Shown here piece by piece: positions 19,897-55,186 of a stretch of 55,186 nucleotides of DNA. Positions within the stretch are counted from its first letter, which is position 1. Each line of letters starts with the position of its first letter. Below the pieces are notes generated by a model that made no database searches, was not told the DNA's origin, and saw nothing but the letters and a program-made list of their open reading frames with translations. The stretch lies in IMG/VR virus record IMGVR_UViG_3300030099_006009, positions 1-55,186 of that record; one strand, given 5' to 3'. Made by a program: the position numbers and the translations under genes. The DNA comes from a virus. Lineage: Duplodnaviria; Caudoviricetes.

Positions 19897-19912
19897 TTTA
19901 AATATTCAACAT

Positions 19913-19941: not shown

Positions 19942-19944
19942 GAA

Positions 19945-22592: not shown

Positions 22593-24200
22593 CTATACCT
22601 TTTTAACTAGCAACCCAAAATCTCTAAAATACAAATAATCTATGTTTGTTCTCAAAAAGCAATCTAATGCATGTTCTGGAGTTTCAACAATGGGTTCTCT
22701 ATCATTAAAACTTGTATTGAGAACAATAGGAACTCCTGTTCTTTCACCAAACTTTTTAATAAAATTATGATACCATTTATTATCTTCTTCATCAACACTC
22801 TGTAACCTAGCAGTTCCATCATTGTGTGTTACTGCTGGAACTTTATCAGCCATACCATCTTTAAACTTTAATGCTATACTCATGTAAGGACTATCTACAT
22901 CGTGTACAAACCAATTTGAAACCTCTTCTCTTAATATCGATGGAGCGAATGGTCTAAACCATTGTCTGTGCTTTACCTTATCATTTATAATGTCCTTCAT
23001 TTTAAGACTTCTTGGATCAGCTAATATACTTCTATTACCCAACGCTCTTCTACCCGACTCCGATCCACCACCATAAACTGATATTACGTTGTCATCTTCT
23101 GTCAATAAGTCTACCACAAAATCATCATCCGTTTGACTGAAAGTACACTCATTATCACGCGCTCTCAGAGCCTTCTGTATATCATCATCATCATAAGTTT
23201 TTCCTAAATATGGACTTCTATTTTGTGGATTGTTGTATATTCTTGGATTATCTAACACATGATGCCAAACATATCTACACCCACCTAATGTTAAACCAGC
23301 ATCATATGGTATCGGATCACAATATATATTCGTATCTGGAAACCAATCAAACATCTTACCCACCATAACACAATTTAAACTAACCCCACCAGACAAACAA
23401 ATGTTCTTTGGTTTATACTTTTCTATATAAGAACCAAATAATTCTTTACAAACATTCTCTGTTTCTAATTGAAGCGAAGCAGCTATATCAAACTTATTCT
23501 GCTCCGATTTGCATACCTGATAATGTAATTCCCTTGTATCTACTGGTCCTGTACCACCCGAACCCATATTTTTAAAGTGATTAATGTACTTATCTGGATT
23601 ACCAAAAGCAGCCATTCCCATGACAGTTCCCTCTTCACCCCTCTTAACTGGATTTCTATTCAAACCAAATATATGATATGTACAATGATCCCAATACACC
23701 CCAACATTTAACTTAACTCTATCAATTATCTCAATAGGTTCTATTTTATTGTCTCTACCTAACCAAAATGTTGTAGCTGTAACAGTAGCACCAGGTTTAG
23801 GCCATTCATCTAAGTCAGACCAACTATTTTCTCTACCATCATTATAGTCCACACCACCACCATCTATTGTAATTATCAAAGCATCTTTAAAAGGACTAGT
23901 ATAAAATGAGTTAGCGGCATGTGCCTGATGATGGTTGGTTATAAATAATTTAGCAGATGGAACAGCAGACTTAAACTGGTCCTCTGAATAACTAAAGTAT
24001 TGTTTAAATTTACCTGTTCTATTAGTTACAATATAACCAAAATCCCTATCGGTTTCTTGTTCTAAAAATAACTTTAAAGAATCACCCTTACAACCCTTTT
24101 GCCTGTTAAATCTTTCAAGTTCATTATGCACTACTGGAACACCATCTTCTAAAATAGCATAAGCAGAATCGTGTCCACCATGTAATCCTAATATTTTCAT
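22593..24200 (-). CDS. Carbamoyltransferase (NodU/CmcH family) 2
   Basis: GHDS, ERFNRQK, HHQAHA, GGVSLNC, RALGNRS, WFRPFAP, DGTARLQ, LNTSFN. Confidence 0.95.
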   Translation of the reverse strand: MKILGLHGGHDSAYAILEDGVPVVHNELERFNRQKGCKGDSLKLFLEQETDRDFGYIVTNRTGKFKQYFSYSEDQFKSAVPSAKLFITNHHQAHAANSFYTSPFKDALIITIDGGGVDYNDGRENSWSDLDEWPKPGATVTATTFWLGRDNKIEPIEIIDRVKLNVGVYWDHCTYHIFGLNRNPVKRGEEGTVMGMAAFGNPDKYINHFKNMGSGGTGPVDTRELHYQVCKSEQNKFDIAASLQLETENVCKELFGSYIEKYKPKNICLSGGVSLNCVMVGKMFDWFPDTNIYCDPIPYDAGLTLGGCRYVWHHVLDNPRIYNNPQNRSPYLGKTYDDDDIQKALRARDNECTFSQTDDDFVVDLLTEDDNVISVYGGGSESGRRALGNRSILADPRSLKMKDIINDKVKHRQWFRPFAPSILREEVSNWFVHDVDSPYMSIALKFKDGMADKVPAVTHNDGTARLQSVDEEDNKWYHNFIKKFGERTGVPIVLNTSFNDREPIVETPEHALDCFLRTNIDYLYFRDFGLLVKKV

Positions 24201-27211: not shown

Positions 27212-27627
27212 ATATACCTCACTATATAATCACTACAAATTCCAGCACAACCATCAACATCAATTGTTTGTAATTCTGGCAAAACACAAATTGATTTTTC
27301 TGTGAGTGGTTGTGTTGGATAAGTCCAAATGTATTCTTGGGATGTCAATGTTACATTATCGTTTTGATGAAAAAAACAATGAGCACCTAATTCTAACAAC
27401 TCCTTTAATGCCTTAACATTTTTAGCATGACACCAAACTTCTTTCTTTAATAAAAAATCAGAATCTACTCTATATTGTGGTCTATCATGACCAGTCCACC
27501 AAGTATCTGTATACCAAACATCAAGTTCAATATTAAATCCTTGTGCGATAGCTTCTTCACAATACTTTTGTCCATTTTCATACTCATTCGGACCATTCAT
27601 ATTTCCTCTATGTGCTATTAAAATCAT
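27208..27627 (-). CDS. PLC-like/GDPD-like phosphodiesterase-fold protein
   Basis: LIAHRGN..EN, ELDVW, GHD, WCHAKN, GICSD. Confidence 0.75.
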   Translation of the reverse strand: MILIAHRGNMNGPNEYENGQKYCEEAIAQGFNIELDVWYTDTWWTGHDRPQYRVDSDFLLKKEVWCHAKNVKALKELLELGAHCFFHQNDNVTLTSQEYIWTYPTQPLTEKSICVLPELQTIDVDGCAGICSDYIVRYI

Positions 27628-28984
27628 TTATATACCTCTCTAAATCTTCTGGTGTTCCTAATCCCCACATTTTTTCAATTGGGAATATTTTAATTTTCTT
27701 TTCATCCTCAATAGATTCATTGTAAACAGGACAAACATAAAATTCATTATTAGTTCGTATGTCTTTTTCAATCATTTGTTCAGCATACTTTACATAATCA
27801 GAACCCTTTCTCCAATAATAAACACCAACAGTAGCAATATTAGAAATAGGTTTCTTTTCAGCAACTTCAGTTACAAATCCATTTTCACCTAACTTAGCAA
27901 ATGACCACTTAGGATGAGTTGCTTCAAATGAAACAATGCCACCATCAACATCATCAGCAACCATAGAGTACATAAACTCATTACTATCCCACTCTAAAAA
28001 TTGATCTGAATTAGCCATTACTAATGGTTCATCATTATCTATTAATTCTTTTGCCAATAAAGTTGTACAAGCAGCTCCCTCTGTTATCCCATCCACTTGA
28101 ACAATCTCACAATTATTATCGGTTATTAAATTTAACAGATACTTTAAATTATATTTTTTATAATGATTCTTTTGAACAATAAATATATGTTTAGCATCTA
28201 TATTCAAATTCTCAACTACAACTTGTATCATCGGTTTACCATTAACCTCAATCAAAGGTTTTGGAAATGTATAACCTGCTTGTTCAAATCTTGAACCGGC
28301 ACCTGCCATTGGTATTAATACATTCATATCTCCACCTTGCCATTTTGGTTTAACCTCTCCATTTTTATTAGCCAAATCTATGACTCTCTTTACCTTTTCA
28401 TAAGAAACATCGTTACTATCTTCCACCGCACATAAATGAGCACCACTACTTAAAGCACCTTTTCTGCCTATATGCGAATCCTCTATTATAACAGTTTCAT
28501 TCGGATTAACTTCGGCTTTAATCATGCATCTTAAATATATTTCCGAATTAGGTTTTGGGTTTTTTACATCTTGATTTGTGTATAAAAAATCAATGTGTTC
28601 AAAGAAACCCTTTCTTATGAGTTGTAATTTAGCAGTTTTTCTAATTGAATTTGTAGCACAAGCTATTATATAACCTTCTGACTTTAAGCTTCTTAATATA
28701 CTTTGTATTCTATCATCGACTGAAAACCCATCGATTATTTTTAAAGTCATATCCTGTTTCATATTATGTATGGTATCGTGTAGTTTCTCTGACAAATCTT
28801 TGTTTTTAGATAACATTTTAAGTTTTCTCGTAGTTGTTAACCCATCGTATGTAGAAAGATGCTCATCTCTTTGAATTATATATTTTTCATCAATAGAACC
28901 TAATGCTTTATTTAATGCTTTGTAATGTAACTCCCTAGCATCAACCAAAACACCATCTAAATCAAATATTATAAGTTTTATCAT
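27608..28984 (-). CDS. HAD phosphatase / sugar-phosphate nucleotidyltransferase fusion
   Basis: FDLDGVL, KPNSEIY, IEDS; then IPMAGAGSRF, PKPLI, EKKPIS, LGTPEDL. Confidence 0.9.
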   Translation of the reverse strand: MIKLIIFDLDGVLVDARELHYKALNKALGSIDEKYIIQRDEHLSTYDGLTTTRKLKMLSKNKDLSEKLHDTIHNMKQDMTLKIIDGFSVDDRIQSILRSLKSEGYIIACATNSIRKTAKLQLIRKGFFEHIDFLYTNQDVKNPKPNSEIYLRCMIKAEVNPNETVIIEDSHIGRKGALSSGAHLCAVEDSNDVSYEKVKRVIDLANKNGEVKPKWQGGDMNVLIPMAGAGSRFEQAGYTFPKPLIEVNGKPMIQVVVENLNIDAKHIFIVQKNHYKKYNLKYLLNLITDNNCEIVQVDGITEGAACTTLLAKELIDNDEPLVMANSDQFLEWDSNEFMYSMVADDVDGGIVSFEATHPKWSFAKLGENGFVTEVAEKKPISNIATVGVYYWRKGSDYVKYAEQMIEKDIRTNNEFYVCPVYNESIEDEKKIKIFPIEKMWGLGTPEDLERYINDFNST

Positions 28985-32504: not shown

Positions 32505-33133
32505 TTGATACTGTTTATTTCTTCATTATAAAATCTATTCTGCTCTACTTGTCTCTGTATTGTTTTTGGGTGAACAATAGAATACTTTTGCTCCATCGGT
32601 AAATGTGCATAAGTTTGAAATCCCACTATCTGTTCGTGGACAGGTTTTTCCCAACGTATGTTTGGTCGGTTACGAAAGATACGACCTTGCCAGTCAGGAT
32701 AGTTTATCCATCCCTTTTCATTTATTTGATACCCATACATTCTACAATGCTCTTCCGTTATCCCATCTACCGTGTTTATTCTTGGAACATATATCAAATC
32801 AACTTCATTACCATCAAGTATCTCATGTATATCTTTCATGAACCAATGTGAAACCATTTCATCCGCATCCAAATTAAAACTATAATCACCAGAACACATA
32901 TTCTTAAGGTAGTTTTTTTGACTGGCAAAATCATGTAATAGATTTCTTTGGTCTAATACAACATCCTCTGCTGATGAATAATAATCCAAAATAGCTTTGG
33001 TTTTTTCCTCAGTAGAATAATCATCTAATACAACGATCTCGTCCTGTGGTTGTTTAAATTTTACTAAAAATTCTAATAATTTTTCAAGAGTGTCGGTTTC
33101 ATTATGAACCAACATTGAGTAACTAATTTTCAT
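32501..33133 (-). CDS. Glycosyltransferase family 2
   Basis: HNE, DDYS, LDADE, YPDWQGR, VHE. Confidence 0.9.
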   Translation of the reverse strand: MKISYSMLVHNETDTLEKLLEFLVKFKQPQDEIVVLDDYSTEEKTKAILDYYSSAEDVVLDQRNLLHDFASQKNYLKNMCSGDYSFNLDADEMVSHWFMKDIHEILDGNEVDLIYVPRINTVDGITEEHCRMYGYQINEKGWINYPDWQGRIFRNRPNIRWEKPVHEQIVGFQTYAHLPMEQKYSIVHPKTIQRQVEQNRFYNEEINSIK

Positions 33134-33588
33134 TGAATAAATTGAGTATTTATTTGTGTAACTTTTAGTGAGGTCAATTTACCTATTTTATAAGCTCTAT
33201 ATGCTTCTTTAAAAAATTTATCAGATAATATTACATCACTATAAAATCTTTTGGTGGACATTGCAGACCTTTTCTTTGGGTTAGAAATCTGAATCCTAAA
33301 ATAATCATCAGTTAAATTAATTAGATTTTCGACTTCATCCAACTTAGTTTTTTTGAAATCCATTACTTGGAATAATTTTTTTAACTTAGTTGGGTTAAGA
33401 TAATTTAAATTTAAACCTTCAATATTTTTTGTCTTACTGTCTTCATGTAAAAAAAGTAAAATAGGACGAGGATCCATAACACCTTGTTCAGAATAGTTAA
33501 ATGTGACTATCATACCAGGTATTAGCCTACGAGATGGGACTGTTTGAATTGACTTAATTATCCGTCTGTTGTTGTATCGTCTTGCCAA
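33130..33588 (-). CDS. T4 gp2-like DNA end protector homolog (tentative)
   Basis: PGMIVTFNY..DPRPILL..IEGLNLNYL resembles gp2 G.MY.F.Y..YD.FPL..GLNLHYL. Confidence 0.55.
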   Translation of the reverse strand: MARRYNNRRIIKSIQTVPSRRLIPGMIVTFNYSEQGVMDPRPILLFLHEDSKTKNIEGLNLNYLNPTKLKKLFQVMDFKKTKLDEVENLINLTDDYFRIQISNPKKRSAMSTKRFYSDVILSDKFFKEAYRAYKIGKLTSLKVTQINTQFIQ

Positions 33589-33955
33589 GAACTTTCTCCA
33601 TTTTTTCTACCATTTTATAAGCATCAGAAAATAGTGGGACCACCACCTCTGTCTCAGGACTCTGATGAGCAAATATTCTCCATTTTAATACACCATCATC
33701 AACCATAGGAATAACATTATAGTTTTCCGTGGTGAACACCGATGGTGCCCAATATCTACCCTTATCTGTTTCTATACATACATCTTTAAAATCTTCAGGA
33801 AAGGGTTTGATGTGAGTTTTCATTTTACTATTAGAAGCGTACCCACAGGCTAAACATTGCATATTTTGTTCACCATCACCTAACAATACCATTGACTCTT
33901 CTATCTCACTACAAGTTTCTAGTGGACACTTAACTCTTAACACAAAATCTTCCAT
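33554..33955 (-). CDS. Hypothetical Zn-ribbon protein
   Basis: CPLETC...CLACG. Confidence 0.65.
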   Translation of the reverse strand: MEDFVLRVKCPLETCSEIEESMVLLGDGEQNMQCLACGYASNSKMKTHIKPFPEDFKDVCIETDKGRYWAPSVFTTENYNVIPMVDDGVLKWRIFAHQSPETEVVVPLFSDAYKMVEKMEKVLGKTIQQQTDN

Positions 33956-35310
33956 TATGTTACCTTCTTTAATTTTGGTAATTTAAGTTTTGGTGGTTGT
34001 GGATTTTCGCCATCAACTTTTTTAAGTTTTGGTAATTTTAGACTAACAGCTTGTGGTGTTTCTTTTAACACATCATTAATAATACCATTAAATTTATTTG
34101 CCATAGCTTTTAGAGAAAACTCTCTTCTGTTTTTTTTACCTAAACGAGTAGCTTTCTTTTGTATTAATTTTCTTTTCTTGTGAAAAGTTCTAATTTTTCT
34201 AACTACATCCGCTTCATTTACATTAAACCACTTTGACGGTTCTACAATAATTGGTTTCCACAAAGCCGATTTAGGAACTTCTTTTAGAAACCCATCAATC
34301 AACATAGATTCTGAATCTGTAAGAAAGTCAAGATGACCACTCCATTTAGTAGCAATCACAGGTAAGTCACAGCAACTGGCTTCTAACATAGGTCTTCCAA
34401 ATCCCTCACCATGAGTACAAGTAATGAAAGCGGCAATCTTTGGATGATTGTAAAGTGTTGACATTTCTTCAATAGTAAAGTCACCGTGTATTAAATAAAT
34501 ATTAGGTAAGTCTACACCCGTAAACATATCTTTTACTTTTTGTATTTTCTTCTTTGTTTCGTCTCTATCAAGAATACTAAAGTTGGCACCACTGGTTTTA
34601 AGAACAAGTGCTGGTGGATTAATAATATTAGAAAATGCTTTCAAAAATGATTTTATTAAAACTCCGATGTTTTTTCTATCTTCACCAAAACCACCCTTAC
34701 CCCATTGCCCTACATGTAGATAAGCATAATCTTCTTTAATAAGTTCATTTAATTCTTGATACACATTTTTTTCTAATTCATGTTTTTCTTTAGGAAAATA
34801 TATGTCTGTATCAACTCCCTCGAACAATACAGCTATAGGTTTTTCATTCTTTATCTCACCGGCTTTTTGTTTTTGACCATTGGGTAAATCTTGCATCTTA
34901 TCGTATGTACAACGATTGAAAGTATCTGCCGTAAATTTAGATGGAACTATATTAAAGTTCATTCGATTCATACCCTCTAAAAATTCAGGAGACACAACAT
35001 CTGTTTCTACACCAGCAGTTATACCGATATTGACCTTAGCACCACTGGCAAACTCATTAGGTATCCGGATATCAATAAGAACGTCTGGTTGACCTTGTAT
35101 TTGTTCTTGATTTACAAAACTATCTAATAACTTTCTATGTCTTGGAACTTCAGGTCTTAGATGATTTCGTGGTGTGTTTCCCCACTTAACATCAAGACAT
35201 TTAATATCCAAATCTTCCCTATCCATAATAGAATAAAAAAGAGAACGAGCATGGTCACCATAACCACTACGGGTATTAAAAGGTGCAATCATAACTACTG
35301 AACGTTTCAT
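33955..35310 (-). CDS. Glycosyltransferase family 4-like
   Basis: SGYG, RKN, GEGFGRPMLEA, WSGHLDF. Confidence 0.9.
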   Translation of the reverse strand: MKRSVVMIAPFNTRSGYGDHARSLFYSIMDREDLDIKCLDVKWGNTPRNHLRPEVPRHRKLLDSFVNQEQIQGQPDVLIDIRIPNEFASGAKVNIGITAGVETDVVSPEFLEGMNRMNFNIVPSKFTADTFNRCTYDKMQDLPNGQKQKAGEIKNEKPIAVLFEGVDTDIYFPKEKHELEKNVYQELNELIKEDYAYLHVGQWGKGGFGEDRKNIGVLIKSFLKAFSNIINPPALVLKTSGANFSILDRDETKKKIQKVKDMFTGVDLPNIYLIHGDFTIEEMSTLYNHPKIAAFITCTHGEGFGRPMLEASCCDLPVIATKWSGHLDFLTDSESMLIDGFLKEVPKSALWKPIIVEPSKWFNVNEADVVRKIRTFHKKRKLIQKKATRLGKKNRREFSLKAMANKFNGIINDVLKETPQAVSLKLPKLKKVDGENPQPPKLKLPKLKKVT

Positions 35311-36668
35311 ACTGCCTCCATATGATATTTAGGTTGTGGTTTCCAATTATCAAAAGCATCATTCATAGAATCAATAAATCTCTGTCCCATAGCTTTTGAT
35401 GTCATTAGATTTTCTTTACAAAACTCAGTTCCTAACGAACCAAGTCTTTTTCTCTCTTCTCTACCCAAGTCGTATAGTTTTCTCAACTGAACAGCAGCAT
35501 CTTCGGGTTGACATCTGTCATCCCAAATGTAAGGTGTCATAGGAGAACCTTGTAAAGACCTGTTAGTTGGATAAACAGGAAATACCCATTCACCATGTTC
35601 GGTATAAGTTCCTTCATGATTAGAACCTAACTCTATATAATCATCAGGTGTTAATAACTCCCCATCTTTTCTAAAACCACATTGGTCTTGTAGACCACCA
35701 GTAACATTTACGATGATTGGTGTTCCAACGGTAAGTGCTTCACAACTACCTAATCCAAAACCCTCATTACTGGCAAGGTTGATATAAACATCAGACGAGT
35801 TAAATAATAAATTCATTTCATCATCATTGAAAGGTCTATTATCTATATTATAAGTAAAACAAATATCGTAGTCAGGACATAAATGTTTATGAACTCTTGG
35901 TAAATCTGTACCGTTTTCATCTATTGGAGAACAGTGAAAGATGAGAACACATTTTTCTCTTTGTTCAGGTGTTAATCCATCCATAAAATATTTGTATGCC
36001 AATAGAACATCACCTGGCATTTTTCTACGAATGTTTCTATTACTATAAAGTATCTTAAAGGTCTTATCAGATAAACCATACTTTACATCAAAATCCAATA
36101 GTGAAGTATTATCATCTTCTATCTTATGAAATCTTCTATTTGATATACCATGAGGTACATAAGTTATCTGCCAGTCATCATAATGAGGTAATAATCTTTT
36201 GTTAATACCATAAGTTTGTTTTGATATACCCATCAACAAATCACAACTTTTATAGTAGTTAGTATTGTATTGTGGATCTGGTAAGTCATCCCAAATGTTA
36301 TAGTAAAATATTGGAATATCTCTACGAATCTCAGATTCCATATTATAAAACCAAATCCAAAAACGAGGATCTGTATAGTGGAGTATCGCATCAGGTTTTT
36401 CCATTTCCATAACTTGTCTAAGTAAGTCTTCATTACCGTATCCACTCACTGGATATATTCTAAGATATCCATTTTTTATGCCAAAATCTTTTTCAAGACC
36501 TTCAGACATATCAACAATCTTTCCCTCTTCCGGATGTTTGATAGCTCCACCTAGTTGAACCCAATCGTATTCATTTAGTGTTTCAAACACAATGTCTTTT
36601 GATACAGTAGCTACTCCACTATGCATCCTTAAGTCATCAGACATCAATAATATTTTTTTCTTAGCCAT
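35307..36668 (-). CDS. Glycosyltransferase family 4-like
   Basis: VPHG, NRNIRRK, NEGFGLGSCEA, TGG. Confidence 0.9.
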   Translation of the reverse strand: MAKKKILLMSDDLRMHSGVATVSKDIVFETLNEYDWVQLGGAIKHPEEGKIVDMSEGLEKDFGIKNGYLRIYPVSGYGNEDLLRQVMEMEKPDAILHYTDPRFWIWFYNMESEIRRDIPIFYYNIWDDLPDPQYNTNYYKSCDLLMGISKQTYGINKRLLPHYDDWQITYVPHGISNRRFHKIEDDNTSLLDFDVKYGLSDKTFKILYSNRNIRRKMPGDVLLAYKYFMDGLTPEQREKCVLIFHCSPIDENGTDLPRVHKHLCPDYDICFTYNIDNRPFNDDEMNLLFNSSDVYINLASNEGFGLGSCEALTVGTPIIVNVTGGLQDQCGFRKDGELLTPDDYIELGSNHEGTYTEHGEWVFPVYPTNRSLQGSPMTPYIWDDRCQPEDAAVQLRKLYDLGREERKRLGSLGTEFCKENLMTSKAMGQRFIDSMNDAFDNWKPQPKYHMEAV

Positions 36669-36903
36669 TTATCAACTTCCTTGTGTCATCACCTTGATAA
36701 TCTTTAGGAAAATATTTATTCAGAACACTTAATTTATCATCATATTCGGCGATAAATTCTAACTCTTTTTCTATAGTTTCCATGATGTCAGCGTGTTCTG
36801 CCACACCGACTGAATTGTGTAATAGATTCTCAACATTAATACGATGTTTTTCTATGTGTGCCTCAAAATGTATTTTACTAGCTTTAATTAATTCTTCTCT
36901 CAT
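36661..36903 (-). CDS. Conserved hypothetical phage protein
   Basis: KHRINVE..L..VGVAEH..I.ETIE.EL pattern that I recall from marine T4-like phages. Confidence 0.7.
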   Translation of the reverse strand: MREELIKASKIHFEAHIEKHRINVENLLHNSVGVAEHADIMETIEKELEFIAEYDDKLSVLNKYFPKDYQGDDTRKLING

Positions 36904-42066: not shown

Positions 42067-44592
42067 TTAAAAAAACTTTTCAATTGTATTTTTCTTTTCT
42101 ACTGGCATATCCCAAGACATAGCATCATAAAACATCTTAATCTTTTTACTAAGGGCTTTATCAAATAATTTATCTCGGTCAATATATTGATTGATAAAAT
42201 CTATGATTTGTTTAGGATCGTCATAACCTTTGTAAGCCAAACCATCAATATTATAAGGATTTTGTTTTAGATAAACCCAACGAACCTTGTTACCATTTGA
42301 AATAGGTTCGTGGTTAGTAACCTTGAAATGTCTAAGTAAGTCATTGTAAATAACAGAAGCTTTGGTGTGAACTGGTGCTCCTTTCTTCATTGATGTAAAC
42401 ATTGTCTTACTCTGAAATCCATTTTTTGATTTATCAATGTATTTATTCATACCTTTAACACCTGTTGGAAGAGCAATCTTATCTAACTCCTCATCCTTTA
42501 GATTATTTTTAAAATTTAGAATAAACTCATCAATCTTTTCTTTTGGAACTTTGGCAAGGATAGCTTTTAGAACCTTAGTCATGAAGTCACGAAATGCTGG
42601 TGGAAATGAACTACGAACAATATCTAAACCTTTAACATCAAGTTTCTCTACTTCCAAACCACCATCGTTGATAATCCATTGACCATATCTTTTCTTGGTA
42701 ACCCAAAAAGCAGATTTAGCAATCATCTCTTGTTTAATCTCAAAACGATGGTCGCCTCTGATATTTAAAAACTTACTACTGAAGTAATTGTAAGATTTAT
42801 TAATATAGTCTTGAACCTCACCAGCAATCTTAAGGATTTGTTCTGTCATAAACTTATCATCTTCGACATCAGCATTCGGAAACCTATTCTTAACAAGTGG
42901 TAGAGCAGAGTAGAAAACTGAGTCTGTATCTGTGTAAATACAATAATCTTCCTTCGTGTTTAGTATCTTATTATAGTAACTATTAGCAATCGTTTCTGTA
43001 AATTGAATCAATTTCTGACCTGTTGTTGTCGTACCTTCAGCGTTGTCAATATCATAAAACCTAAATACTGTCAATCCTAAAACTCCGTACAAACTATTTA
43101 GAAGAATTTTCTGTACCAATTGTCGTCTGTCAAAATAACCGTGTAGTTCGTCATTCCCTTCTTCACCATACTTCTTTGCCAGTTTTCTATACTCTACTCT
43201 TTCGTTAAACCACTTCTCAAGTATTGCTGGTATAACACCCTTTTGTTTGAGGTCATACAAAACACCATTTGATGAAATGGATACTTCATTCTTGTTAAAG
43301 AAATCTTTAAGTTGTCCACTTGTAAAGGTTCTGATTGTCTTACCACCCTTATCTACAGAATAGTGTTTCTCTTCACCTTTAATAAATTCTTCCGCATCCC
43401 AACCATTTATCTTACCTATTTTAGTTTCTGGCGACATATTCAAAGACATAATGATACTTGGATACATAGATGTTAAGTCTAAATCAAATACCCAATCATA
43501 ACGACCTGGTATTGGTGATTTAACATACGCACCACTAAATCTACCCTCCGAACCGTCATATGTCACATTAGCTCCTTTACTCGGAGCAACTAAACCTAAA
43601 CTACGAAGATATACTAACATAGCACCCTCAATGTATCGAGAACTAAAGTAAACCTCTTCGTAAGGTATCCTACCCAAGTGAGATACAGCTCTAGCTAAAT
43701 CCAAAAATTTAAACTTTTGGTCAAGTGCCTTAACTATCTCAACATCGTTTAGGTTGTATTCAATAAACTTATCAATGTCATCTCTGTATAAATCATCTAA
43801 TGTACCTTCATACTCGACCTTACCTAACCCTACCTCTATTGTTCCGATATGGTCTAAACGATAACTTGATTGTTGTGTATATGTAAATTTTCTGTATAAA
43901 TCCATATAATCTAAAGAACTAACACCAGCAATTCTATACATCTTTTTGTTTGGATTATATTTAACGATTTGTATTGGTGATAGAGCATTAGCAAACTCCT
44001 CACCTAAAACTTTTGAAAGACGATTATATAAATAAGGAATATCAAAGCCATTAGTGTTCCAACCAGTAACACAAGTCGGTTGAACCTTTATCCAATATCT
44101 TAAAAACTCTTTGAGTAACTCTGACTCTGTAGAATAAAAACGAATGTCTACTTCGTCTTTGATATTGTTTTGTCCCTCTCCTAAAACATAAACACGATAC
44201 TTTCCATCGTGTTTGGTATACATAGCAACCGAGGTAACTTTGTTTTGTGCTTTAGATGGTTCAGGAAAACCATCGGTAACTTCTACCTCGATATCAAAAA
44301 ATAATTCTCTGTGGTTTTTAGATGGTTCATCAGAGTCTTCGTACCTATCCAAAAGGATACGAGTTTCTAATGGAACATCAGACTCGAACACACGACCAGT
44401 CTTAAAATCTTCCTCTGTCCAATATGTGACTTTCTTAAGTTTGTCTCCATAGATAGAGCGATATGTGCCACTTCCATCTCGAACATAGGCGTAATTCTTA
44501 AATATAAAATTTTGATAACCAGCTACATCATCCCAAAGATGAACTTCTACTTGATTACCACCTCTTTTTTCACACCAAATATTTTGATACAT
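42067..44592 (-). CDS. Family B DNA polymerase (T4 gp43-like)
   Basis: DIE, FDIPY, YNLND, DLTSMYPS, KILLNSLYG, YTDTDS, KKRY. Confidence 0.97.
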   Translation of the reverse strand: MYQNIWCEKRGGNQVEVHLWDDVAGYQNFIFKNYAYVRDGSGTYRSIYGDKLKKVTYWTEEDFKTGRVFESDVPLETRILLDRYEDSDEPSKNHRELFFDIEVEVTDGFPEPSKAQNKVTSVAMYTKHDGKYRVYVLGEGQNNIKDEVDIRFYSTESELLKEFLRYWIKVQPTCVTGWNTNGFDIPYLYNRLSKVLGEEFANALSPIQIVKYNPNKKMYRIAGVSSLDYMDLYRKFTYTQQSSYRLDHIGTIEVGLGKVEYEGTLDDLYRDDIDKFIEYNLNDVEIVKALDQKFKFLDLARAVSHLGRIPYEEVYFSSRYIEGAMLVYLRSLGLVAPSKGANVTYDGSEGRFSGAYVKSPIPGRYDWVFDLDLTSMYPSIIMSLNMSPETKIGKINGWDAEEFIKGEEKHYSVDKGGKTIRTFTSGQLKDFFNKNEVSISSNGVLYDLKQKGVIPAILEKWFNERVEYRKLAKKYGEEGNDELHGYFDRRQLVQKILLNSLYGVLGLTVFRFYDIDNAEGTTTTGQKLIQFTETIANSYYNKILNTKEDYCIYTDTDSVFYSALPLVKNRFPNADVEDDKFMTEQILKIAGEVQDYINKSYNYFSSKFLNIRGDHRFEIKQEMIAKSAFWVTKKRYGQWIINDGGLEVEKLDVKGLDIVRSSFPPAFRDFMTKVLKAILAKVPKEKIDEFILNFKNNLKDEELDKIALPTGVKGMNKYIDKSKNGFQSKTMFTSMKKGAPVHTKASVIYNDLLRHFKVTNHEPISNGNKVRWVYLKQNPYNIDGLAYKGYDDPKQIIDFINQYIDRDKLFDKALSKKIKMFYDAMSWDMPVEKKNTIEKFF

Positions 44593-44624
44593 TTAGATTA
44601 TAAAATCCCCATTTTCGATATGTA

Positions 44625-44654
44625 AATATAATAATAAAACCATATATAAGTCAA
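44625..44654 (-). promoter_or_regulatory. Sigma70-like promoter TTGACT-N18-TATATT
   Basis: Upstream of polB; shares CTTGACTTATATA with the copy at 2505-2534. Confidence 0.7.
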
Positions 44655-44661: not shown

Positions 44662-45162
44662 TTAATCCATTAAAAAAATTTCTTGTGAATCTATCAATGT
44701 GTTTTGTATACTCCAATACAATCTCATTTCACTACCAGAGCCTTTATTTTGCATAACCTGTGTTGGACTTAATAAGTTATAAAAATATCCTAGACTGTCA
44801 ACTATAGAATATCTATTAGTAGTCCATCTCAAAGTGTCTACATTTACATTCATTGTATCTCTATTACCAAAGTTATCATACCATATTGCTTTAGTTCTAC
44901 TATTAGACAATAATCTGTAATGTCCACTTGAGTCATCTTCATCCCAATACATATTACTCCACCAATGCACCACTAATCTTTCTAAAGGTATGCTATCTTC
45001 GGAATGTAAATGTCCCCATATTGGTGTTGACGTAATCCATGTGTTATCTAATATTTCTATTCTAGGAACTCTTAGCATTGTAACTATGATATTTGATTTA
45101 TTTTGCTCTTCAATCCTATCATCACATCCGAATAATAATAATAAAAATAATAACTTTTTCAT
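44662..45162 (-). CDS. Putative lipoprotein
   Basis: MKKLLFLLLLFG-C lipoprotein signal. Confidence 0.72.
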   Translation of the reverse strand: MKKLLFLLLLFGCDDRIEEQNKSNIIVTMLRVPRIEILDNTWITSTPIWGHLHSEDSIPLERLVVHWWSNMYWDEDDSSGHYRLLSNSRTKAIWYDNFGNRDTMNVNVDTLRWTTNRYSIVDSLGYFYNLLSPTQVMQNKGSGSEMRLYWSIQNTLIDSQEIFLMD

Positions 45163-45177: not shown

Positions 45178-45205
45178 AAAAAGGGGGATATATTTCAATC
45201 CCCCT
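45178..45205 (-). terminator. Rho-independent terminator after the TonB receptor
   Basis: GGGGGAT-loop-ATCCCCC followed by TTTTT on the minus strand. Confidence 0.85.
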
Positions 45206-45217: not shown

Positions 45218-47947
45218 TTAGAAATTAACAGAAAGTCCTAAGTTAAAATGTCTTGGTGTTCCCAAGAATACTTCGGCATTATGAGCAAGGTGAAGTTTAT
45301 CACCGTAGCCATTGTACTTACTGTTATCAACAGCATCTTGAACATATACATCGTCAAGTGCATTAAATACATGACCTGAAAGTGTCATGTTCAAACCAGC
45401 AATTTCTGGTAGTTTATAAGATAGATGTAAATCTAACTTACCATAAGATGGAGATTTCCATACTTGTGCTCTATCAGCATCACCGTCAACCTCACGAGAA
45501 TCAGGACTCCAATCAGCATAGTGATTATCATACCACCTGTAAAGACCTTGTACTCTTAATCCATCGATAGGTTTAACAGTTAATCCACCAACATAAGAAG
45601 TTTGTGGCATGTCTCCAACTTTGAGATTATTAAGAGCATATTCATACTCTGTAGAAGTCTGACCTATAATCTGACCTTCTTCATTGTATTCCATCTCTTG
45701 ATAATCACCTTTGGCGTCCCCATCAAAATACCAATCACCTATACTCACAGCTACATCTAAATCAACCATCTCGTGAAGAGCAATCTTAGATTCGACCTCT
45801 ACACCAGAGTGTGATTGATTTACACCTGTAAGATAAATGATGTCTGTATCGCCAGAATCACCTTGACCTGTGGTTACAGATTTAGTAAGGTTTCTATCAT
45901 TCCATTTGGTATTATAATAACTACCTTTGATAGCAACCGATTCACTTCTGTATTCCCCACCGATTTCAGTAGATGTAAATTTCTCATTATCAGGATCCGT
46001 TGAAACAGTTCCATCATAAGCAATTACATTATCTAAAATGGGTGGTTTTTGGACATATCCAACATTAGCAAATGCTGAAAGCCTGTCGTCAAGATTATAT
46101 CTACCACCACCTTTTACTTGGAAAGTAGTAATAGCATCGGCTTTTACAAGTTCTTTCTCAACAGAGAAATGGTCTTTGTAAGTATATCCAATGGTTGAAA
46201 TACCACCCATACCATAAAGATTAATCTTCTCTGTATCGTACTGTCCTTGTAAAAAAGCACCAAACCAATCAACTGTGGTATTGTTGTGATAAGCAATAAT
46301 ATCACCCAATCCAACTTTCTTACCGTCAGCATAATTGTCATCAGCATAGTCTACATAGTAGTCTCCACCAAGTAAGTCACGAACTTCTCTAGCATGTTCG
46401 ATACCAGCAGTTCTCCAATCAATACCAATCTGAACTTCAAGTTCGTCTGATACATCATAGTTTAACTTTGAAATCAAACCATAAGTATCTTGTCTATTGA
46501 TTGAGTTTCTAAGGATACCAGTGGAGCGGTTTTCGGTTTCTGACCATGCTGAATCTACATTAGTAGAGTTTTCTGCAATCTCGCCATCCCAATCCCATCT
46601 CCAAGGTGAACTCGCCCACCATTGATTACCTTCAACAGCAGGAAGTCTTTTTACACTTCCATAAGTTCCTGTACCACCACCAGAACCACCTGACCAATAA
46701 AGAACAGATGATAATCTAACATCTTCATTGATATCATAAAAATGATTTAGGTTTACAAGTGGTTTGTGAAAGAAGTTCTCTCTCTCGTTCAAAAGAGTAG
46801 GACTGTATCTATCCACAATGTTTGCACCATACATATACCAATATTGTTTTCCCTTATAGTCTGAACTAACGGGAGCCCAATTTTGGTTAAAGAACCTACC
46901 AGCTTCATGTTGAAACTTTTCACCTTCCGCAAAAGCAGTGACATCATATCCATCAATATCACCTGCTAACTCTTGTGAATAAGTAGCTATGTTCTGTTTG
47001 TATAGGTTCTGACCATGACGCTGTGGAGCACCAATGGCATACAACTCGAATCTTTGGTCATCACTTACCGCATAAGATGTACCAAGATAATAAGCCCAAG
47101 CGTCTGTCCATGTTCCGTCTATAAAACCATCACCGGTTTTACGAACAATCGTTCCACTTACTGCCAGTTTATCATTGATTAGACCTGAGTTATAATTCAA
47201 GGTAGATTTTAGAAATCCACCCTCACCGACTTCCTGTTTGAACTTTCCACCCTTTTCTTGGGCAGCAGGATCGGTGATTATATTCATAGTTCCACCAATA
47301 GATGGTGTTGCTAGATTTACGGCTGATAGACCTCTTTGCATCTGAATTGAAGAAGTGGCATCACCCACTCCATCCCAATTAGACCAATAAACCCATCCGT
47401 TCTCCATGTCATTTTGGGGAACACCGTTTATCATTACTGCAACGTTTCTCTGATTGAATCCACGAACATTGATACGGGCATCTCCCGCACCACCACCTTG
47501 TTGTGTAGCATAAACACTTGGTGTCGTATTAAGAATCATTGGTATGTCTTGTGAACCAAGACGAACTTCCATTTCCTCTTTACTGACATTAGTGTAAGCT
47601 ACAGGTGTTGTTTCATCTGCACGAGAAGCAAGAACTTCAAGTGCTGTGAGAGCAACAACATCAGTTTCTAAGTCGAAACTAACACTCCCAACTATGTCCC
47701 CAACCCTTACACTTTTGGTTTGGGATACATAACCGATGTATGAAGCAGTAAGATCGAAAGTACCTGTACCCGTCTCTATGACGAACTTACCCTCAGCGTC
47801 TGTTACGCCACCGAGTTCAGTACCTTCTATAACTACGTTTGCTCCAACAAGTGGTTCTTCTCCGTTTCCAACAAAACCAGTTACGGCTTGTCCAAAGACA
47901 AGACCAACTGACATCATCAGAACAGAGATAAGATTACGATAATTCAT
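45218..47947 (-). CDS. TonB-dependent receptor with N-terminal carboxypeptidase-regulatory-like domain
   Basis: Signal peptide MNYRNL..VFG; EPLVGANV..TDAEGKF..SYIGY; plug INVRGF..VMINGVP..QMQRG..GGTMNIIT; C-terminal PRHFNLGLSVNF; AGGAG RBS supports the start at 47947. Confidence 0.93.
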   Translation of the reverse strand: MNYRNLISVLMMSVGLVFGQAVTGFVGNGEEPLVGANVVIEGTELGGVTDAEGKFVIETGTGTFDLTASYIGYVSQTKSVRVGDIVGSVSFDLETDVVALTALEVLASRADETTPVAYTNVSKEEMEVRLGSQDIPMILNTTPSVYATQQGGGAGDARINVRGFNQRNVAVMINGVPQNDMENGWVYWSNWDGVGDATSSIQMQRGLSAVNLATPSIGGTMNIITDPAAQEKGGKFKQEVGEGGFLKSTLNYNSGLINDKLAVSGTIVRKTGDGFIDGTWTDAWAYYLGTSYAVSDDQRFELYAIGAPQRHGQNLYKQNIATYSQELAGDIDGYDVTAFAEGEKFQHEAGRFFNQNWAPVSSDYKGKQYWYMYGANIVDRYSPTLLNERENFFHKPLVNLNHFYDINEDVRLSSVLYWSGGSGGGTGTYGSVKRLPAVEGNQWWASSPWRWDWDGEIAENSTNVDSAWSETENRSTGILRNSINRQDTYGLISKLNYDVSDELEVQIGIDWRTAGIEHAREVRDLLGGDYYVDYADDNYADGKKVGLGDIIAYHNNTTVDWFGAFLQGQYDTEKINLYGMGGISTIGYTYKDHFSVEKELVKADAITTFQVKGGGRYNLDDRLSAFANVGYVQKPPILDNVIAYDGTVSTDPDNEKFTSTEIGGEYRSESVAIKGSYYNTKWNDRNLTKSVTTGQGDSGDTDIIYLTGVNQSHSGVEVESKIALHEMVDLDVAVSIGDWYFDGDAKGDYQEMEYNEEGQIIGQTSTEYEYALNNLKVGDMPQTSYVGGLTVKPIDGLRVQGLYRWYDNHYADWSPDSREVDGDADRAQVWKSPSYGKLDLHLSYKLPEIAGLNMTLSGHVFNALDDVYVQDAVDNSKYNGYGDKLHLAHNAEVFLGTPRHFNLGLSVNF

Positions 47948-47976
47948 AATCTGTCTCCTAGCTTTGTTATTGTTAA

Positions 47977-48012
47977 GACACATTTTTAATCACAGGTGTG
48001 TCGTCTGCCTGT
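47977..48012 (-). promoter_or_regulatory. Predicted H-type RNA pseudoknot in the TonB-receptor leader
   Basis: ACAGG-CAGAC-GACACA-CCUGU-GAUUAAAAA-UGUGUC: 5-bp and 6-bp Watson-Crick stems. Confidence 0.55.
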
Positions 48013-48022
48013 CCGCATTTCA

Positions 48023-50035
48023 TTAGTTGGCATAATCCTGGTCATCATTATCACCATGCATTGGTGGAATTTCACAACTATCGTTGTTACAGAACTTATC
48101 GACATCAGCCTCTTCATTCTTTATCACACCAAATGATAACTTACCAAGTTTTGCAACTTCTTTGTTGTAAGTTTCTTCGTCAATCGCTTCATAAGGCATT
48201 TGTGGATATGCTCCCCAATCATGTCTCGGTAATAAACTAATACCCTTTAGATGATACTGATAATAGTTTAAACAAGGAGCAATCTGATTTGCCTCTGTTT
48301 CAGGATTAAATGTAACCGTACAACTTACTTGGTTGTCAGCCCAATGTCGTTGTAAAAACGCAGCAAGTGAGAATTGTTCCCAAATGGAGAGTTCGGAAGC
48401 AGTTCTGATTCCCTCTCCTACATCTACGGGCACATCGACAACCATAGTAGTTTCTTCAGAACCAAAAGCTGGTTCTAACTTATATCCAGCTTTCTCCAAT
48501 GGTTCTAATAATTCTGAGTGTTTTGATAACCTTATTCTTCTTATGTAAAATCTTGATTCAGGATAGTGAAGTCCTGGTGTAGCACCAGCAAGTAATGATA
48601 CAGTTCCACTTGGTTTAACTGAAGTGGTTTTGATACTTCTTGGAACTGCCATCCAATCTGAATATTGTTTATCCCATTGTTGGATAACATCGTACCCATC
48701 GTTTAACCACTCCTTAAACTCATCTAATCCTCTGTTGGTAACAAACTGAGCAACACCACTCACAGAACAACCTATTCTTCTATTTCTTAACATCACTCTG
48801 TTTGTATCACTCCAATGAGTTCTACCAAGTGTTACTGTTTTGGCATATAGATAAGCATACTTAAGAGTTTTCGCATAGTCTTCGAAATCATCGTGGTTGT
48901 TAGGAAATGTTTCCACTAAACAACACAACTCGTATGACTCTAAGGTTTGTTCCAAACAAGGATTACCACCCATAGCACGATGGTCTTTATTATCTCCACC
49001 ATTTTTCATACGAGAATACTTTCTCATATTATCTAACCAAGCAAAGCCAGGCTCACCATTATCCACGATTCGTTTGGCAGCCTCTGTATAATCCATACCC
49101 AACTCTGCGAATATACTATTATTACTTGTCCATCCATATGTTTCTCTATGTGGGTTTACTTTATAATTCTTTAAATCTAAATATTCTTCTGAGTGTGAAT
49201 TACCAAAGACAATTTCAGCAGTTCTTCTTACGTTACCAGCCACAACACATTTTCCGATAAGATTCATAATGTCAACTATTGTCGTGATAGTGATTGGTTC
49301 TCCACTATTTTTTTCTAATACCTTTCTAATGTCTTCATGTACTTCTTCTAATGGTTCATGTCCACTTGATACACCACCAAAACCACTTATTGGTTCTCCT
49401 GCTGGTCTTATCTTTGTGTAATCAAACTCTATTGGAGCTTGTCCGTGAAAGTAACTTTCTAATAGTAGTCTTAAAGATTCAACCCAACCCTCACGAGTAT
49501 CAGGTATTTCGTATACTTGTTCTTCTCTATTTTCTTGTATACCTTTAACTACTATCTCCCCAGCACCTTTTGTATCAAACCCCACACCGACACCTAACAT
49601 ACTCGCATCCATAAGGAAACAGAAAGGTTTAGCATAGTCTTCTTTTAGTGTTTTGGTTGATACGAAGGCACAATTGTTTAGGGCGGCATATAAACCCTTT
49701 TTCTCTGTGATAGGTGTTCCCATAGCCCACAGACCGCGTCCAGGCGGCAAAAACTTCATATTGAAAATTCGGTCATACATATCTTGAGCCGACTTTTGAG
49801 CTTGCCACGCATTCCACCCTAATTGATGTGATTCAATCCAATTCATTTGCATATTGTAAGTCCCCTCTACAACACGCTGTACGGTTTCCCACCATCTTTC
49901 ATTTTTACCATTATCTTTGATTCTTGAGTAAGTTCTCATATAAACTAATTCACCCAAACCATTGAAACCAAACGGAGCTTTTTTTCTTTTGTATTTGCTT
50001 ATAAAGTTCTCCGATAAAACAAACTTTTTACTCAT
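48023..50035 (-). CDS. nrdJ: Class II (adenosylcobalamin-dependent) ribonucleotide reductase, monomeric type
   Basis: PPGRGLW, LNNC, GNVRRTA, NPCLEQ, TSVKPSGT, C-terminal FCNNDSC; no beta subunit nearby. Confidence 0.93.
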   Translation of the reverse strand: MSKKFVLSENFISKYKRKKAPFGFNGLGELVYMRTYSRIKDNGKNERWWETVQRVVEGTYNMQMNWIESHQLGWNAWQAQKSAQDMYDRIFNMKFLPPGRGLWAMGTPITEKKGLYAALNNCAFVSTKTLKEDYAKPFCFLMDASMLGVGVGFDTKGAGEIVVKGIQENREEQVYEIPDTREGWVESLRLLLESYFHGQAPIEFDYTKIRPAGEPISGFGGVSSGHEPLEEVHEDIRKVLEKNSGEPITITTIVDIMNLIGKCVVAGNVRRTAEIVFGNSHSEEYLDLKNYKVNPHRETYGWTSNNSIFAELGMDYTEAAKRIVDNGEPGFAWLDNMRKYSRMKNGGDNKDHRAMGGNPCLEQTLESYELCCLVETFPNNHDDFEDYAKTLKYAYLYAKTVTLGRTHWSDTNRVMLRNRRIGCSVSGVAQFVTNRGLDEFKEWLNDGYDVIQQWDKQYSDWMAVPRSIKTTSVKPSGTVSLLAGATPGLHYPESRFYIRRIRLSKHSELLEPLEKAGYKLEPAFGSEETTMVVDVPVDVGEGIRTASELSIWEQFSLAAFLQRHWADNQVSCTVTFNPETEANQIAPCLNYYQYHLKGISLLPRHDWGAYPQMPYEAIDEETYNKEVAKLGKLSFGVIKNEEADVDKFCNNDSCEIPPMHGDNDDQDYAN

Positions 50036-54694: not shown

Positions 54695-55186
54695 TTATGA
54701 ATTAAATAACTTATCGAAATCATCTTCTACATTTGAAGAACCTTCAGTAGCAACCATTTCTGGTTCTTTTTCTGTTGTTTCTTCTGTAGAATCTGATGGG
54801 TTTAGAAAGTTAGAAAGATGACTCTTTAACTCATCAAAAGTTGGTTCTTGATACAACTCTTTGATGTCAGGTTGTTCATCTAACAATCTTTGTAGTAAGT
54901 TAGAATCATCGGAAAGTGCTGTAACGTTTGGTTTGACACGAATGGTAGTCTTACCATATTGGTTACCAGCTTCAGCAGGCGTTTGTCTTTCGACAACAAT
55001 ATCACGACCTGTTGTAGCATCGGATATATCACCATAGTCTGGATCGGCTATGATACCAAGAAGTTCTTGATATACAGTTTTACCAAATCCCCAAAACTTT
55101 ACACCTTCGGATTCTTCACCACGAACAACGACAGGAACAAAAGTTCTCATCTTTGGTTCGATTCTCTTACCTTGAATCCATTCATC
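54695..55186 (-). CDS. Single-stranded DNA-binding protein (T4 gp32-like), 5'-truncated
   Basis: GVKFWGFGKTVY, DYGDISD..TGRDI, acidic tail DDFDKLF; frame open to the window end. Confidence 0.85.
   Translation of the reverse strand, partial: DEWIQGKRIEPKMRTFVPVVVRGEESEGVKFWGFGKTVYQELLGIIADPDYGDISDATTGRDIVVERQTPAEAGNQYGKTTIRVKPNVTALSDDSNLLQRLLDEQPDIKELYQEPTFDELKSHLSNFLNPSDSTEETTEKEPEMVATEGSSNVEDDFDKLFNS

Follow-up and report, generated by a model that had tools for sequence, protein, structure and literature searches.

The DNA analysed here, called the window throughout, is the complete IMG/VR virus record IMGVR_UViG_3300030099_006009, a stretch of 55,186 nucleotides (nt) from a virus of the Caudoviricetes (Duplodnaviria). 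Its CheckV completeness is about 30%, and all of its genes lie on the minus strand. The subject of this work is a gene for an outer-membrane transporter of the TonB-dependent kind (TBDT), which stands directly behind nrdJ, the gene of a B12-dependent ribonucleotide reductase (RNR), and ahead of polB, the gene of a family B DNA polymerase. The nrdJ gene (48023-50035, minus strand) encodes a ribonucleoside-triphosphate reductase of the RTPR type, a monomeric class II enzyme of 670 amino acids (aa) that depends on adenosylcobalamin. It scores 370.9 bits against the NCBIfam RTPR model TIGR02505, above the curated cut-off of 340.05, it matches phrog_367 with an E-value (E) of 4.9e-136, and the Pfam families PF17975, PF21995 and PF02867 match it as well. 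The longest open reading frame (ORF) of the TBDT covers 45218-47983 (minus strand) and would give 921 aa. Translation probably begins at the ATG at 47947, for a protein of 909 aa (45218-47947, minus strand). A Shine-Dalgarno sequence, AGGAG, can be read at 47955-47959 on the same strand, 7 nt 5' of this ATG, and is kept in related leaders. The spacing between the nrdJ stop and this ATG is 75 nt.

The TBDT gene is closed by a terminator-like hairpin followed by a T-run (45182-45205, minus strand; eight pairs, five of them G-C), placed right after the stop codon. Between nrdJ and the TBDT gene the terminator scan called no site; over the window as a whole the scan was not enriched, with 5 sites where shuffles gave 3.5 +/- 2.0. 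The hairpin behind the TBDT gene nevertheless recurs after the TBDT stop in two related loci (L207, L217) and is absent at four junctions that lack the TBDT (L174, L175, L208, L189). Further on, a promoter-like element precedes polB (44597-44654, minus strand; TTGACT-N18-TATATT and TTTACA-N18-TATAAT). In the TBDT-less loci L174, L175 and L208 this element comes directly after the nrdJ stop, and in TBDT-positive loci the leader, the TBDT gene and the terminator are inserted before it, so that the two states differ by a clean insertion or deletion with conserved boundaries. No promoter-like site was called in the 75-nt spacer between nrdJ and the TBDT gene.

The polB gene (42067-44592, minus strand; PF00136, PF03104) forms the downstream boundary of the insertion site. 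The closest cultured relative of its product is the polymerase of Microcystis phage Mel-JY01, at 45.9% identity, and the cyanomyovirus polymerases stand at about 31-33%. The flanks of the nrdJ-TBDT pair are made up of replication genes, namely those of PolB, a clamp loader, a methylase, DnaB, a 5'-3' exonuclease, RecA and a single-stranded DNA-binding protein (SSB; 54695-55150). A megablast search of GenBank found no close phage relatives of the window. A preliminary description, made from the letters of the DNA, had reported an intact receptor of about 909 aa some 75 nt behind nrdJ, and coordinates, RTPR and Pfam matches agree with it in every particular. The terminator scan likewise agrees with its report of no terminator between the two genes and one right after the second, and the flanking genes, T4-like in kind, with the location that it gave inside a replication block.

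The Transporter Protein

By its hallmarks, a plug and a predicted barrel, the phage protein would be an exported, TonB-driven channel. Its N-terminus is signal-peptide-like as read from the sequence, and is followed by a CarboxypepD_reg-like domain (47645-47866, minus strand; PF13715, residues 40-113 of the 921-aa frame, E 7.6e-15, 55.2 bits for CarbopepD_reg_2). A TonB-box-like stretch (residues 101-120), read from the alignment and 93% conserved, lies just 5' of the plug domain (47288-47614, minus strand; PF07715, residues 124-232 of the 921-aa frame, E 4.8e-14, 53.2 bits against a cut-off of 23.9). An AlphaFold2 model built with 73 sequences reached a pLDDT of 88 and a pTM of 0.83. When compared with the Protein Data Bank (PDB) by Foldseek, this model gave 466 matches at E<=0.001, and all of those listed are plug-and-barrel TBDTs. 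The match to PqqU has an E of 6e-43 and a TM-score of 0.80 by target length, and the best matches reach TM-scores up to 0.80-0.83 on the same normalisation.

The fold was also considered as a guide to the substrate and had to be discarded, for its matches are generic TBDTs at 12-15% identity. A profile search of the PDB with the TBDT matched the N-terminal and plug parts only, and cannot name a ligand. Against the SusC/RagA model TIGR04056 the protein scores 53.7 bits, far from the cut-off of 368.25, and only over the N-terminus.

A Pseudoknot in the TBDT Leader

The 5' leader of the TBDT gene contains a predicted H-type pseudoknot (47977-48016, minus strand). Stem 1 has five pairs (ACAGG/CCTGT) and is followed by a five-base loop; stem 2 has six pairs (GACACA/TGTGTC) and abuts stem 1; loop 3 is A-rich and invariant. 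The motif is about 38-40 nt long and ends 26-36 nt before the TBDT start, with leaders measured by eye. In an alignment of 32 rows, the window copy and 31 distinct variants taken from 85 loci, 98.6% of the cells are paired, and 5 of the 11 pairs change on both sides. None of 500 shuffles reached these values of pairing and covariation, and controls in which the stems were slid pair in 17-55% of cells. Rfam 15 gave no match at the gathering score, and at E<=10 only chance-level ones, the best a snoRNA at E 0.47. A covariance model of the motif, run over 553 kb, found it once per TBDT-bearing locus and in none of the TBDT-less phage loci or host loci. With its compensatory changes, the pseudoknot thus appears to be a new RNA motif.

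In those leaders the pseudoknot keeps a steady 26-36 nt from the TBDT start, while the stretch between it and the nrdJ stop varies and can hold other genes, and the motif also occurs without nrdJ. On these grounds a role as a readthrough or frameshift signal of nrdJ was rejected. The leader pseudoknot of the T4 gene 32 mRNA is a translational operator. The element described here resembles it in being H-type with no nucleotide between the stems, and in leading through an unstructured A-rich stretch (26-36 nt) to the ribosome-binding site of a gene from a T4-like phage; it differs in its unrelated sequence and in preceding a transporter gene rather than an SSB gene. By this analogy the pseudoknot may be an operator of the gene 32 type, and it may equally be a small ligand-sensing switch. 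Separately, many phage loci (e.g., L018, L030, L034, L048) have a recurrent word, TTCACATA(C), a few bases upstream of their pseudoknot, and it stands upstream of two host orthologues too, in L083 and L084. This word may be a promoter or an operator element, or its recurrence may be due to chance.

Distribution and Linkage to nrdJ

Relatives of the TBDT are encoded on 308 IMG/VR contigs found by the scan, and a protein database holds close copies by the thousand, with 6419 matches at E<=0.001 among the 8000 scored. The best 80 of the 308 contigs, with proteins 74-97% identical to that of the window, form the TBDT-anchored set. The nrdJ gene lies directly upstream in all 75 loci that have upstream DNA, the other 5 of the 80 being cut at the TBDT gene. 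The gap is at most 105 nt in 70 of the 75, and 575-1080 nt in the remaining five, where a glutamine-synthetase-like ORF or a peroxiredoxin gene intervenes. Such an arrangement is far beyond chance.

A second set, anchored on the best 80 PolB relatives, has 60 loci with informative upstream DNA. The TBDT stands before polB in 42 of these, nrdJ is followed by polB without a TBDT in 15, and 3 show neither arrangement, which makes 18 loci without the TBDT. Two of these phages make the point well. L207, which has the TBDT, and L208, which lacks it, show almost the same identities to the window (PolB 73% in both, NrdJ 92% and 91%), which marks nrdJ as core and the TBDT as accessory. The leader motif offers a third view of the same site. 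Scanning IMG/VR with it matched at least 120 stretches and added 74 new loci, and a TBDT gene comes right after the motif in all 67 that have room downstream. Upstream of the motif, nrdJ is found in 70 of the 74 and is absent in four (L257, L268, L279, L311). Neither a phage NrdJ nor a Ribonuc_red_lgC domain was found anywhere on these four contigs (24.7-57.1 kb), whose TBDTs, 67-70% identical to that of the window, stand among genes of Hsp20, peptide deformylase and a dehydrogenase.

The linkage that the preliminary description had pointed to is therefore a tight adjacency (75 of 75) but not an obligate unit, since nrdJ occurs without the TBDT in 15 of 60 loci and the cassette without nrdJ in 4 of 67. 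Unlinked copies, which that description had named as speaking against a tie to the reductase, do exist, as that minority of 4 in 67 cassette loci.

The interval between nrdJ and polB is an accessory-gene hot spot in related phages, rich in nucleotide enzymes and methylases. It may hold genes for dUTPase, thymidylate synthase, a PNKP-type HAD phosphatase, a DNA methylase, an AhpC/TSA peroxiredoxin or a short glutamine-synthetase-like ORF; accessory genes such as these lie at 6561-7547 in L009, 1497-2066 in L035, 3184-3693 in L008, 12929-14288 in L062 and 5103-5867 in L007. The site is a flexible nucleotide-metabolism corner of these genomes. The cassette inserted there is host-derived, is present or absent among close relatives, and brings its own regulatory ends, and these are the marks of an auxiliary metabolic gene (AMG) or moron.

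Origin in Marinimicrobia

Cellular orthologues were collected by an alignment-based scan using one genome per prokaryote species, which returned 80 loci. The nearest, at 58-68% identity, come mostly from metagenome-assembled genomes (MAGs) and single-amplified genomes of Marinimicrobia (SAR406; Neomarinimicrobiota/Fidelibacterota), with one labelled Winogradskyella. The next, at about 50%, belong to Calditrichia, Ignavibacteria, Rhodothermales, Gemmatimonadota and Bacteroidota. Ekhidna sp. To15 is one of the carriers (L121). Next door to the orthologue, no locus among the 80 shows nrdJ, polB or another gene of the window, and their cellular contexts can therefore be taken as genuine. Across the Marinimicrobia loci the host orthologue keeps a conserved synteny with DnaG, CvpA, YqeY and a deoxynucleoside kinase.

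A FastTree tree of 151 rows places the 80 phage TBDTs at the tip, deep inside a ladder of Fidelibacterota orthologues. One Marinimicrobia MAG contig of 4.3 kb (L082) carries two tandem TBDT genes with near-identical signal peptides beside a DegT-type aminotransferase gene; its first TBDT falls within the phage clade and is without the phage leader. The DNA of the window points the same way. Positions 1-20000 match 13 of 301 genomes of the Marinimicrobia phylum at E<=1e-20, versus 0 of 301 Bacteroidota. These matches include the region of thyX, the gene of a flavin-dependent thymidylate synthase (68-76% identity, several genomes), and a gene for a rhodanese-like protein (1614-2018, minus strand; PDB 6mxv, E 8e-19) that is 72-77% identical as DNA in four Marinimicrobia-phylum genomes. 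Because the phage TBDTs nest among Marinimicrobia orthologues and the window's DNA finds its matches in that phylum, a Marinimicrobia (SAR406) host is likely for these phages. No spacer-like CRISPR link was found when window positions 1-40000 were compared with the 301 Marinimicrobia-phylum genomes, which gave short, near-chance matches (24-30 nt, E about 1e-3). As a separate observation, window positions 32514-36671 match a short Marinimicrobia MAG contig (G271:C19) at 73% DNA identity over 4.2 kb.

Selection and Exchange

The TBDT is old in these phages and strongly constrained by purifying selection. Between the window copy and 13 other phage copies, dN/dS is 0.07-0.20 at a dS of 0.27-2.1, and 78 phage copies are full-length open reading frames. 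Conservation of the plug across the phage copies stands at 96%, and the plug consensus agrees to 93% with the one from nine Marinimicrobia-type orthologues. In the barrel of the phage copies, the non-strand segments are conserved like the strands (0.86 versus 0.88), so there is no sign of decay or of hypervariable surface loops. A recent sweep of the cassette was also considered; the dS of 0.27-2.1 rules it out.

Within the TBDT-anchored loci, the median identity to the window proteins is 87% for NrdJ, 82% for the TBDT and 71% for RecA, and then 55% for DnaB, 54% for PolB and 44% for the exonuclease. The identity of the TBDT tracks that of NrdJ (Spearman 0.51, n=42, p=6e-4) and not that of PolB (Spearman -0.01, n=63), which fits lineages passing the nrdJ-TBDT segment to one another through recombination.

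Candidate Cargo and Proposed Role

The neighbours of the cellular orthologues offer the best lead on what the transporter may import. The commonest gene directly downstream, in 8 of 65 loci, encodes a type I phosphodiesterase/nucleotide pyrophosphatase (PF01663), and three further loci have one behind an interposed second TBDT. A deoxynucleoside kinase (3 of 65, in Marinimicrobia-type loci) and an Exo_endo_phos protein (2 of 65) come next, and the upstream neighbours are heterogeneous. The 25 commonest families among the 65 downstream and 52 upstream neighbours include no siderophore, heme or periplasmic vitamin-binding family and no SusD-like partner. Riboswitches were sought in 51 of the 80 loci, and the flavin mononucleotide (FMN) riboswitch is the only one linked to any orthologue. 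In L118 (4883-11960), an FMN riboswitch leads a paralogous TBDT, the orthologue and a PF01663 pyrophosphatase; in L109 (3914-11984), it leads four rib genes, the orthologue and again a PF01663 pyrophosphatase. These four have homologues in a rib operon of another genome (G005), likewise led by a riboswitch; the last gene of that operon matches lumazine synthase. As a side observation, FMN-riboswitch operons of bacteria of the Fibrobacteres-Chlorobi-Bacteroidetes (FCB) group include or precede TBDTs of at least two families (L118, L109 and L365 1499-7856).

The hosts themselves add to this lead. The order of one Marinimicrobia genome (G001) was represented by 61 genomes, selected with a completeness threshold of 80; of these, 14 yielded lumazine synthase (RibH) and 58 yielded flavokinase. 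As RibH is rare and flavokinase common, most members seem to salvage rather than make riboflavin, and this gene content suggests a widespread riboflavin auxotrophy. The nucleotide pyrophosphatase family can split flavin adenine dinucleotide into FMN and adenosine monophosphate. The phage has its own ThyX (285-1010, minus strand, outside the cassette; PF02511, 152 bits on 327-971), and ThyX is also seen in two of four related large viral records. On the PF01663 neighbours, the two FMN-riboswitch loci, the scarcity of RibH in the host order and the phage ThyX, flavin or nucleotide-type cofactors stand as the best substrate lead, one of weak to moderate strength, and such a cargo is proposed only tentatively. 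A bolder version, which we consider doubtful, would make the cassette the first recognised outer-membrane flavin transporter family and its pseudoknot a ligand- or protein-responsive translational switch that times synthesis. The phages would then carry it for two reasons, namely that riboflavin auxotrophs prevail among their hosts and that ThyX needs flavin.

On balance we favour the reading that the cassette is an accessory TBDT unit derived from SAR406, which serves the uptake of something other than cobalamin during infection. The analysis shows the anatomy of the cassette, its origin from a host, its accessory status, the purifying selection on it and its RNA motif; we infer how it would be expressed, its export, the transport and, more than anything else, the substrate. 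An ancestor of these marine T4-like phages would have copied the TBDT from its Marinimicrobia (SAR406/Fidelibacterota) host. The result would be a self-contained cassette of pseudoknot leader, Shine-Dalgarno sequence, TBDT gene and terminator, usually lodged between the nrdJ stop and the polB promoter. Since no promoter-like site belongs to the cassette itself, transcription would enter from upstream, read through nrdJ, and end at the cassette's terminator. RNA-library contigs (X19, X20, X21), mostly 88-95% alike to the window, lie on the TBDT and nrdJ, and one of 418 nt crosses their junction (47673-48092). Translation would be set by the pseudoknot leader, export would use the host Sec pathway and the barrel assembly machinery (BAM), and energy would come from the host TonB-ExbBD. 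Once in the host outer membrane, the protein would raise or maintain uptake of the substrate of the host orthologue, presumably over a long infection. The cargo would most likely not be cobalamin; flavin nucleotides or riboflavin, or nucleotide-type organophosphates, may be imported and may feed the supply of cofactors and precursors from which phage DNA is made, in hosts most of which are unable to make riboflavin.

Several observations weigh against this reading or parts of it. The tree was computed with FastTree only, and its long branches are flagged. The RNA-library contigs cannot show a single transcript, its strand or its level, they may stem from carried-over DNA, and the stretches that they leave uncovered carry no meaning. 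PqqU, Fiu, YncD and FhuA head the fold matches, and all PDB matches are 12-15% identical. As for the cargo, the FMN link concerns 2 of 51 loci, both from Bacteroidota, whose TBDTs are 56% identical to each other and 47-50% to the phage protein. Neither a riboswitch nor an adjoining pyrophosphatase is present at the ten nearest orthologue loci of Marinimicrobia. Genomes of the host order without RibH have the orthologue weakly more often (26 of 47, versus 4 of 14), in a count uncorrected for relatedness. Finally, M16 peptidases, ABC transporters and SRAP proteins recur as neighbours too.

Alternative Explanations

Import of another scarce nutrient that has nothing to do with flavins or nucleotides, for instance a metal complex, a different vitamin, or a small protein or peptide, is a possible though not a probable alternative. 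Pairs of M16 peptidase genes stand near the orthologue in four loci, most orthologue loci give no clue to a substrate, and the top fold matches include PqqU/YncD and siderophore receptors. The neighbourhoods argue the other way, as the 25 commonest families include none for siderophores, heme, SusD or periplasmic vitamin binding, and as the one riboswitch linked to the orthologues senses FMN.

TBDTs are classical phage receptors, and the T5 lipoprotein Llp blocks its receptor FhuA. The host orthologue could accordingly be the receptor of these phages, and the phage copy a replacement, a decoy or a means of superinfection control. A role of this sort was offered as the alternative in the preliminary description, and we regard it as unlikely. 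A structure from the T5 precedent, PDB 8a60, is among the Foldseek matches, and the synteny of the host orthologue is conserved across Marinimicrobia. In the window, moreover, the TBDT terminator is directly followed by a lipoprotein-like ORF of 166 aa (44662-45162, minus strand; lipobox LFGC), an optional neighbour that might be Llp-like. Searches of Pfam, NCBIfam and PHROG gave no match for it. A complex prediction of TBDT residues 105-909 with this lipoprotein gave no answer (score 0.00), which is neutral either way. The ORF is 50-86% identical among six aligned copies, but besides the window it lies downstream of the TBDT in only 7 of the 80 related loci (L003, L004, L007, L009, L010, L016, L025). 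Moreover, the barrel's non-strand segments are conserved like its strands and the plug is near-identical to that of the host, which fits neither an arms race nor a crippled transporter, and nothing ties the phage tail proteins to the TBDT.

Cobalamin was the cargo that the position of the gene first brought to mind, as the TBDT would then load B12 for the adenosylcobalamin-dependent NrdJ of the phage. In its favour are the nrdJ gene directly upstream in 75 of 75 TBDT-anchored loci, the covariation of the two identities (rho 0.51), and a host RNR that is itself B12-dependent (TIGR02504, 553.7 bits, in genome G002), so that B12 matters in this system. We nevertheless judge it very improbable. 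The TBDT has no match at E<=0.01 to the BtuB models TIGR01779 and NF007926, and by fold BtuB ranks only 29th, at 14% identity. The two share the plug-and-barrel superfamily fold and TonB dependence; compared with BtuB (PDB 1nqe), the phage protein is about 300 aa longer, has the N-terminal CarboxypepD_reg domain and lacks a cobalamin riboswitch. Rfam shows no such riboswitch in the window, none was found in the 51 orthologue loci scanned, and the 25 commonest Pfam neighbour families of the orthologues include no B12 family.

The hosts do have such a switch, at a different gene. Four of five orthologue-bearing Marinimicrobia genomes contain a single cobalamin riboswitch, each before another TBDT of 681-705 aa (L166 4512-6629, minus; L167 4848-6941, minus; L169 340-2385, plus; L168 3-1415, minus; one truncated at a contig end). 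The best family match of these proteins is TonB-B12, a BtuB family model (48-104 bits, below the cut-off), and their N-terminal part also matches the SusC/RagA model. Such a protein is 26% identical to the phage TBDT, over the N-terminus and plug only. The hosts thus hold a dedicated, riboswitch-led and BtuB-like route for B12, and the phage copied a different transporter. Additionally, nrdJ without the TBDT (15 of 60) and the cassette without nrdJ (4 of 67) speak against a fixed partnership. Of the earlier proposal that the phage imports its own cofactor, an import gene in the nucleotide-metabolism corner of the genome stands, and cobalamin, with no BtuB match and no cobalamin riboswitch, finds no support; its caution that nothing in the sequence proves B12 specificity was well placed. 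It had also called the N-terminal extension untypical of proteobacterial BtuB. The extension is a CarboxypepD_reg-like domain, and it does not discriminate, because the BtuB-like TBDTs of the hosts match the SusC/RagA N-terminal model in the same region.

That the TBDT gene is passenger DNA that plays no part in infection, whether a recently captured host gene or the product of faulty binning or assembly, is scarcely credible: over the TBDT and nrdJ (46001-49000) the G+C content lies at about 0.40, versus 0.30-0.35 in most of the window and about 0.33 in the flanks, as for foreign DNA, but 308 viral contigs have the gene at the same site, it carries a phage-specific leader and terminator, and its dS of 0.27-2.1 and dN/dS of 0.07-0.20 show that it has long been kept.

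Comparison with Known Systems

Marine T4-like phages carry host-derived AMGs such as psbA, pstS and phoA. The cassette is similar to these in being a host gene under purifying selection, placed in a flexible region, that would relieve a bottleneck of phage production. It differs in encoding an outer-membrane, TonB-energised channel in place of a cytoplasmic, periplasmic or thylakoid protein, and in the host clade, SAR406. Among TBDTs, the SusC/RagA proteins of the FCB group share its order of an N-terminal CarboxypepD_reg-like domain followed by a plug, in about 900-1000 aa. The phage TBDT matches them over the N-terminus only, and the commonest neighbours of its orthologues include no SusD-like partner.

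Phage-borne TBDTs are already on record. In the part of the source consulted, the marine megaphage Mar_Mega_1 and LR745206 are described as carrying a SusC TonB-dependent receptor as an AMG, with a proposed boost to nutrient uptake (PMC9723777), and that proposal of raised uptake during infection is close to the one made here. Mar_Mega_1 differs in phage type, presumed host and genomic setting, and that same part of the source describes neither adjacency to nrdJ nor an RNA leader (PMC9723777). The receptor is also a different protein: in our tblastn search with the TBDT, LR745206/LR75650x matched only 17-24% of the query at 27-30% identity; the search otherwise returned megaphages with partial matches and unannotated gut-phage fragments at about 30% identity. 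A vitamin-specific TBDT has a precedent in FCB-group bacteria, namely OMthi, the thiamine transporter of Bacteroides, which the consulted part of its source reports as found by riboswitch and gene-neighbour logic (PMC6977713). It is another protein for another vitamin, and that part of the source describes no TonB-dependent flavin transporter (PMC6977713). Our literature search found no paper on an nrdJ-adjacent TBDT cassette of host descent in T4-like phages, on a link of such phages to SAR406, on a TBDT of SAR406 phages or on the pseudoknot leader, and none on a TBDT controlled by an FMN riboswitch or on an FMN-linked arrangement of TBDT and pyrophosphatase. Phage-borne TBDTs being known, the nrdJ-linked, SAR406-derived cassette with its pseudoknot is best described as a new variant of an AMG.

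Other Features of the Window

Apart from the cassette and the replication genes, the window contains a large sugar-modification block, unusual for a phage, at about 14800-36700 on the minus strand. It includes two Nol-like carbamoyltransferases (14804-16267 and 22593-24200), a HAD-hydrolase fusion (27608-28984) and two glycosyltransferases (33955-35310 and 35307-36668), all on the minus strand.

Implications for SAR406 and Its Phages

In the dark ocean, SAR406, or Marinimicrobia, rank with the most abundant of the uncultured bacteria. A TBDT marker nested in Marinimicrobia links hundreds of T4-like viral contigs to this group and, if true, would give the first genome-level handle on a large and globally distributed group of T4-like SAR406 phages. 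There are by-products as well: a candidate family of flavin/nucleotide TBDTs, paired with a pyrophosphatase in part of the sampled FCB-group and neighbouring phyla; the widespread absence of RibH in one Marinimicrobia order; and a compact pseudoknot RNA motif. That such a phage spends about 2.7 kb on a TonB-energised channel of the outer membrane suggests long infections that rely on continued uptake from seawater. The finding may thus have a bearing on how viruses redirect the fluxes of vitamins and organic phosphorus.

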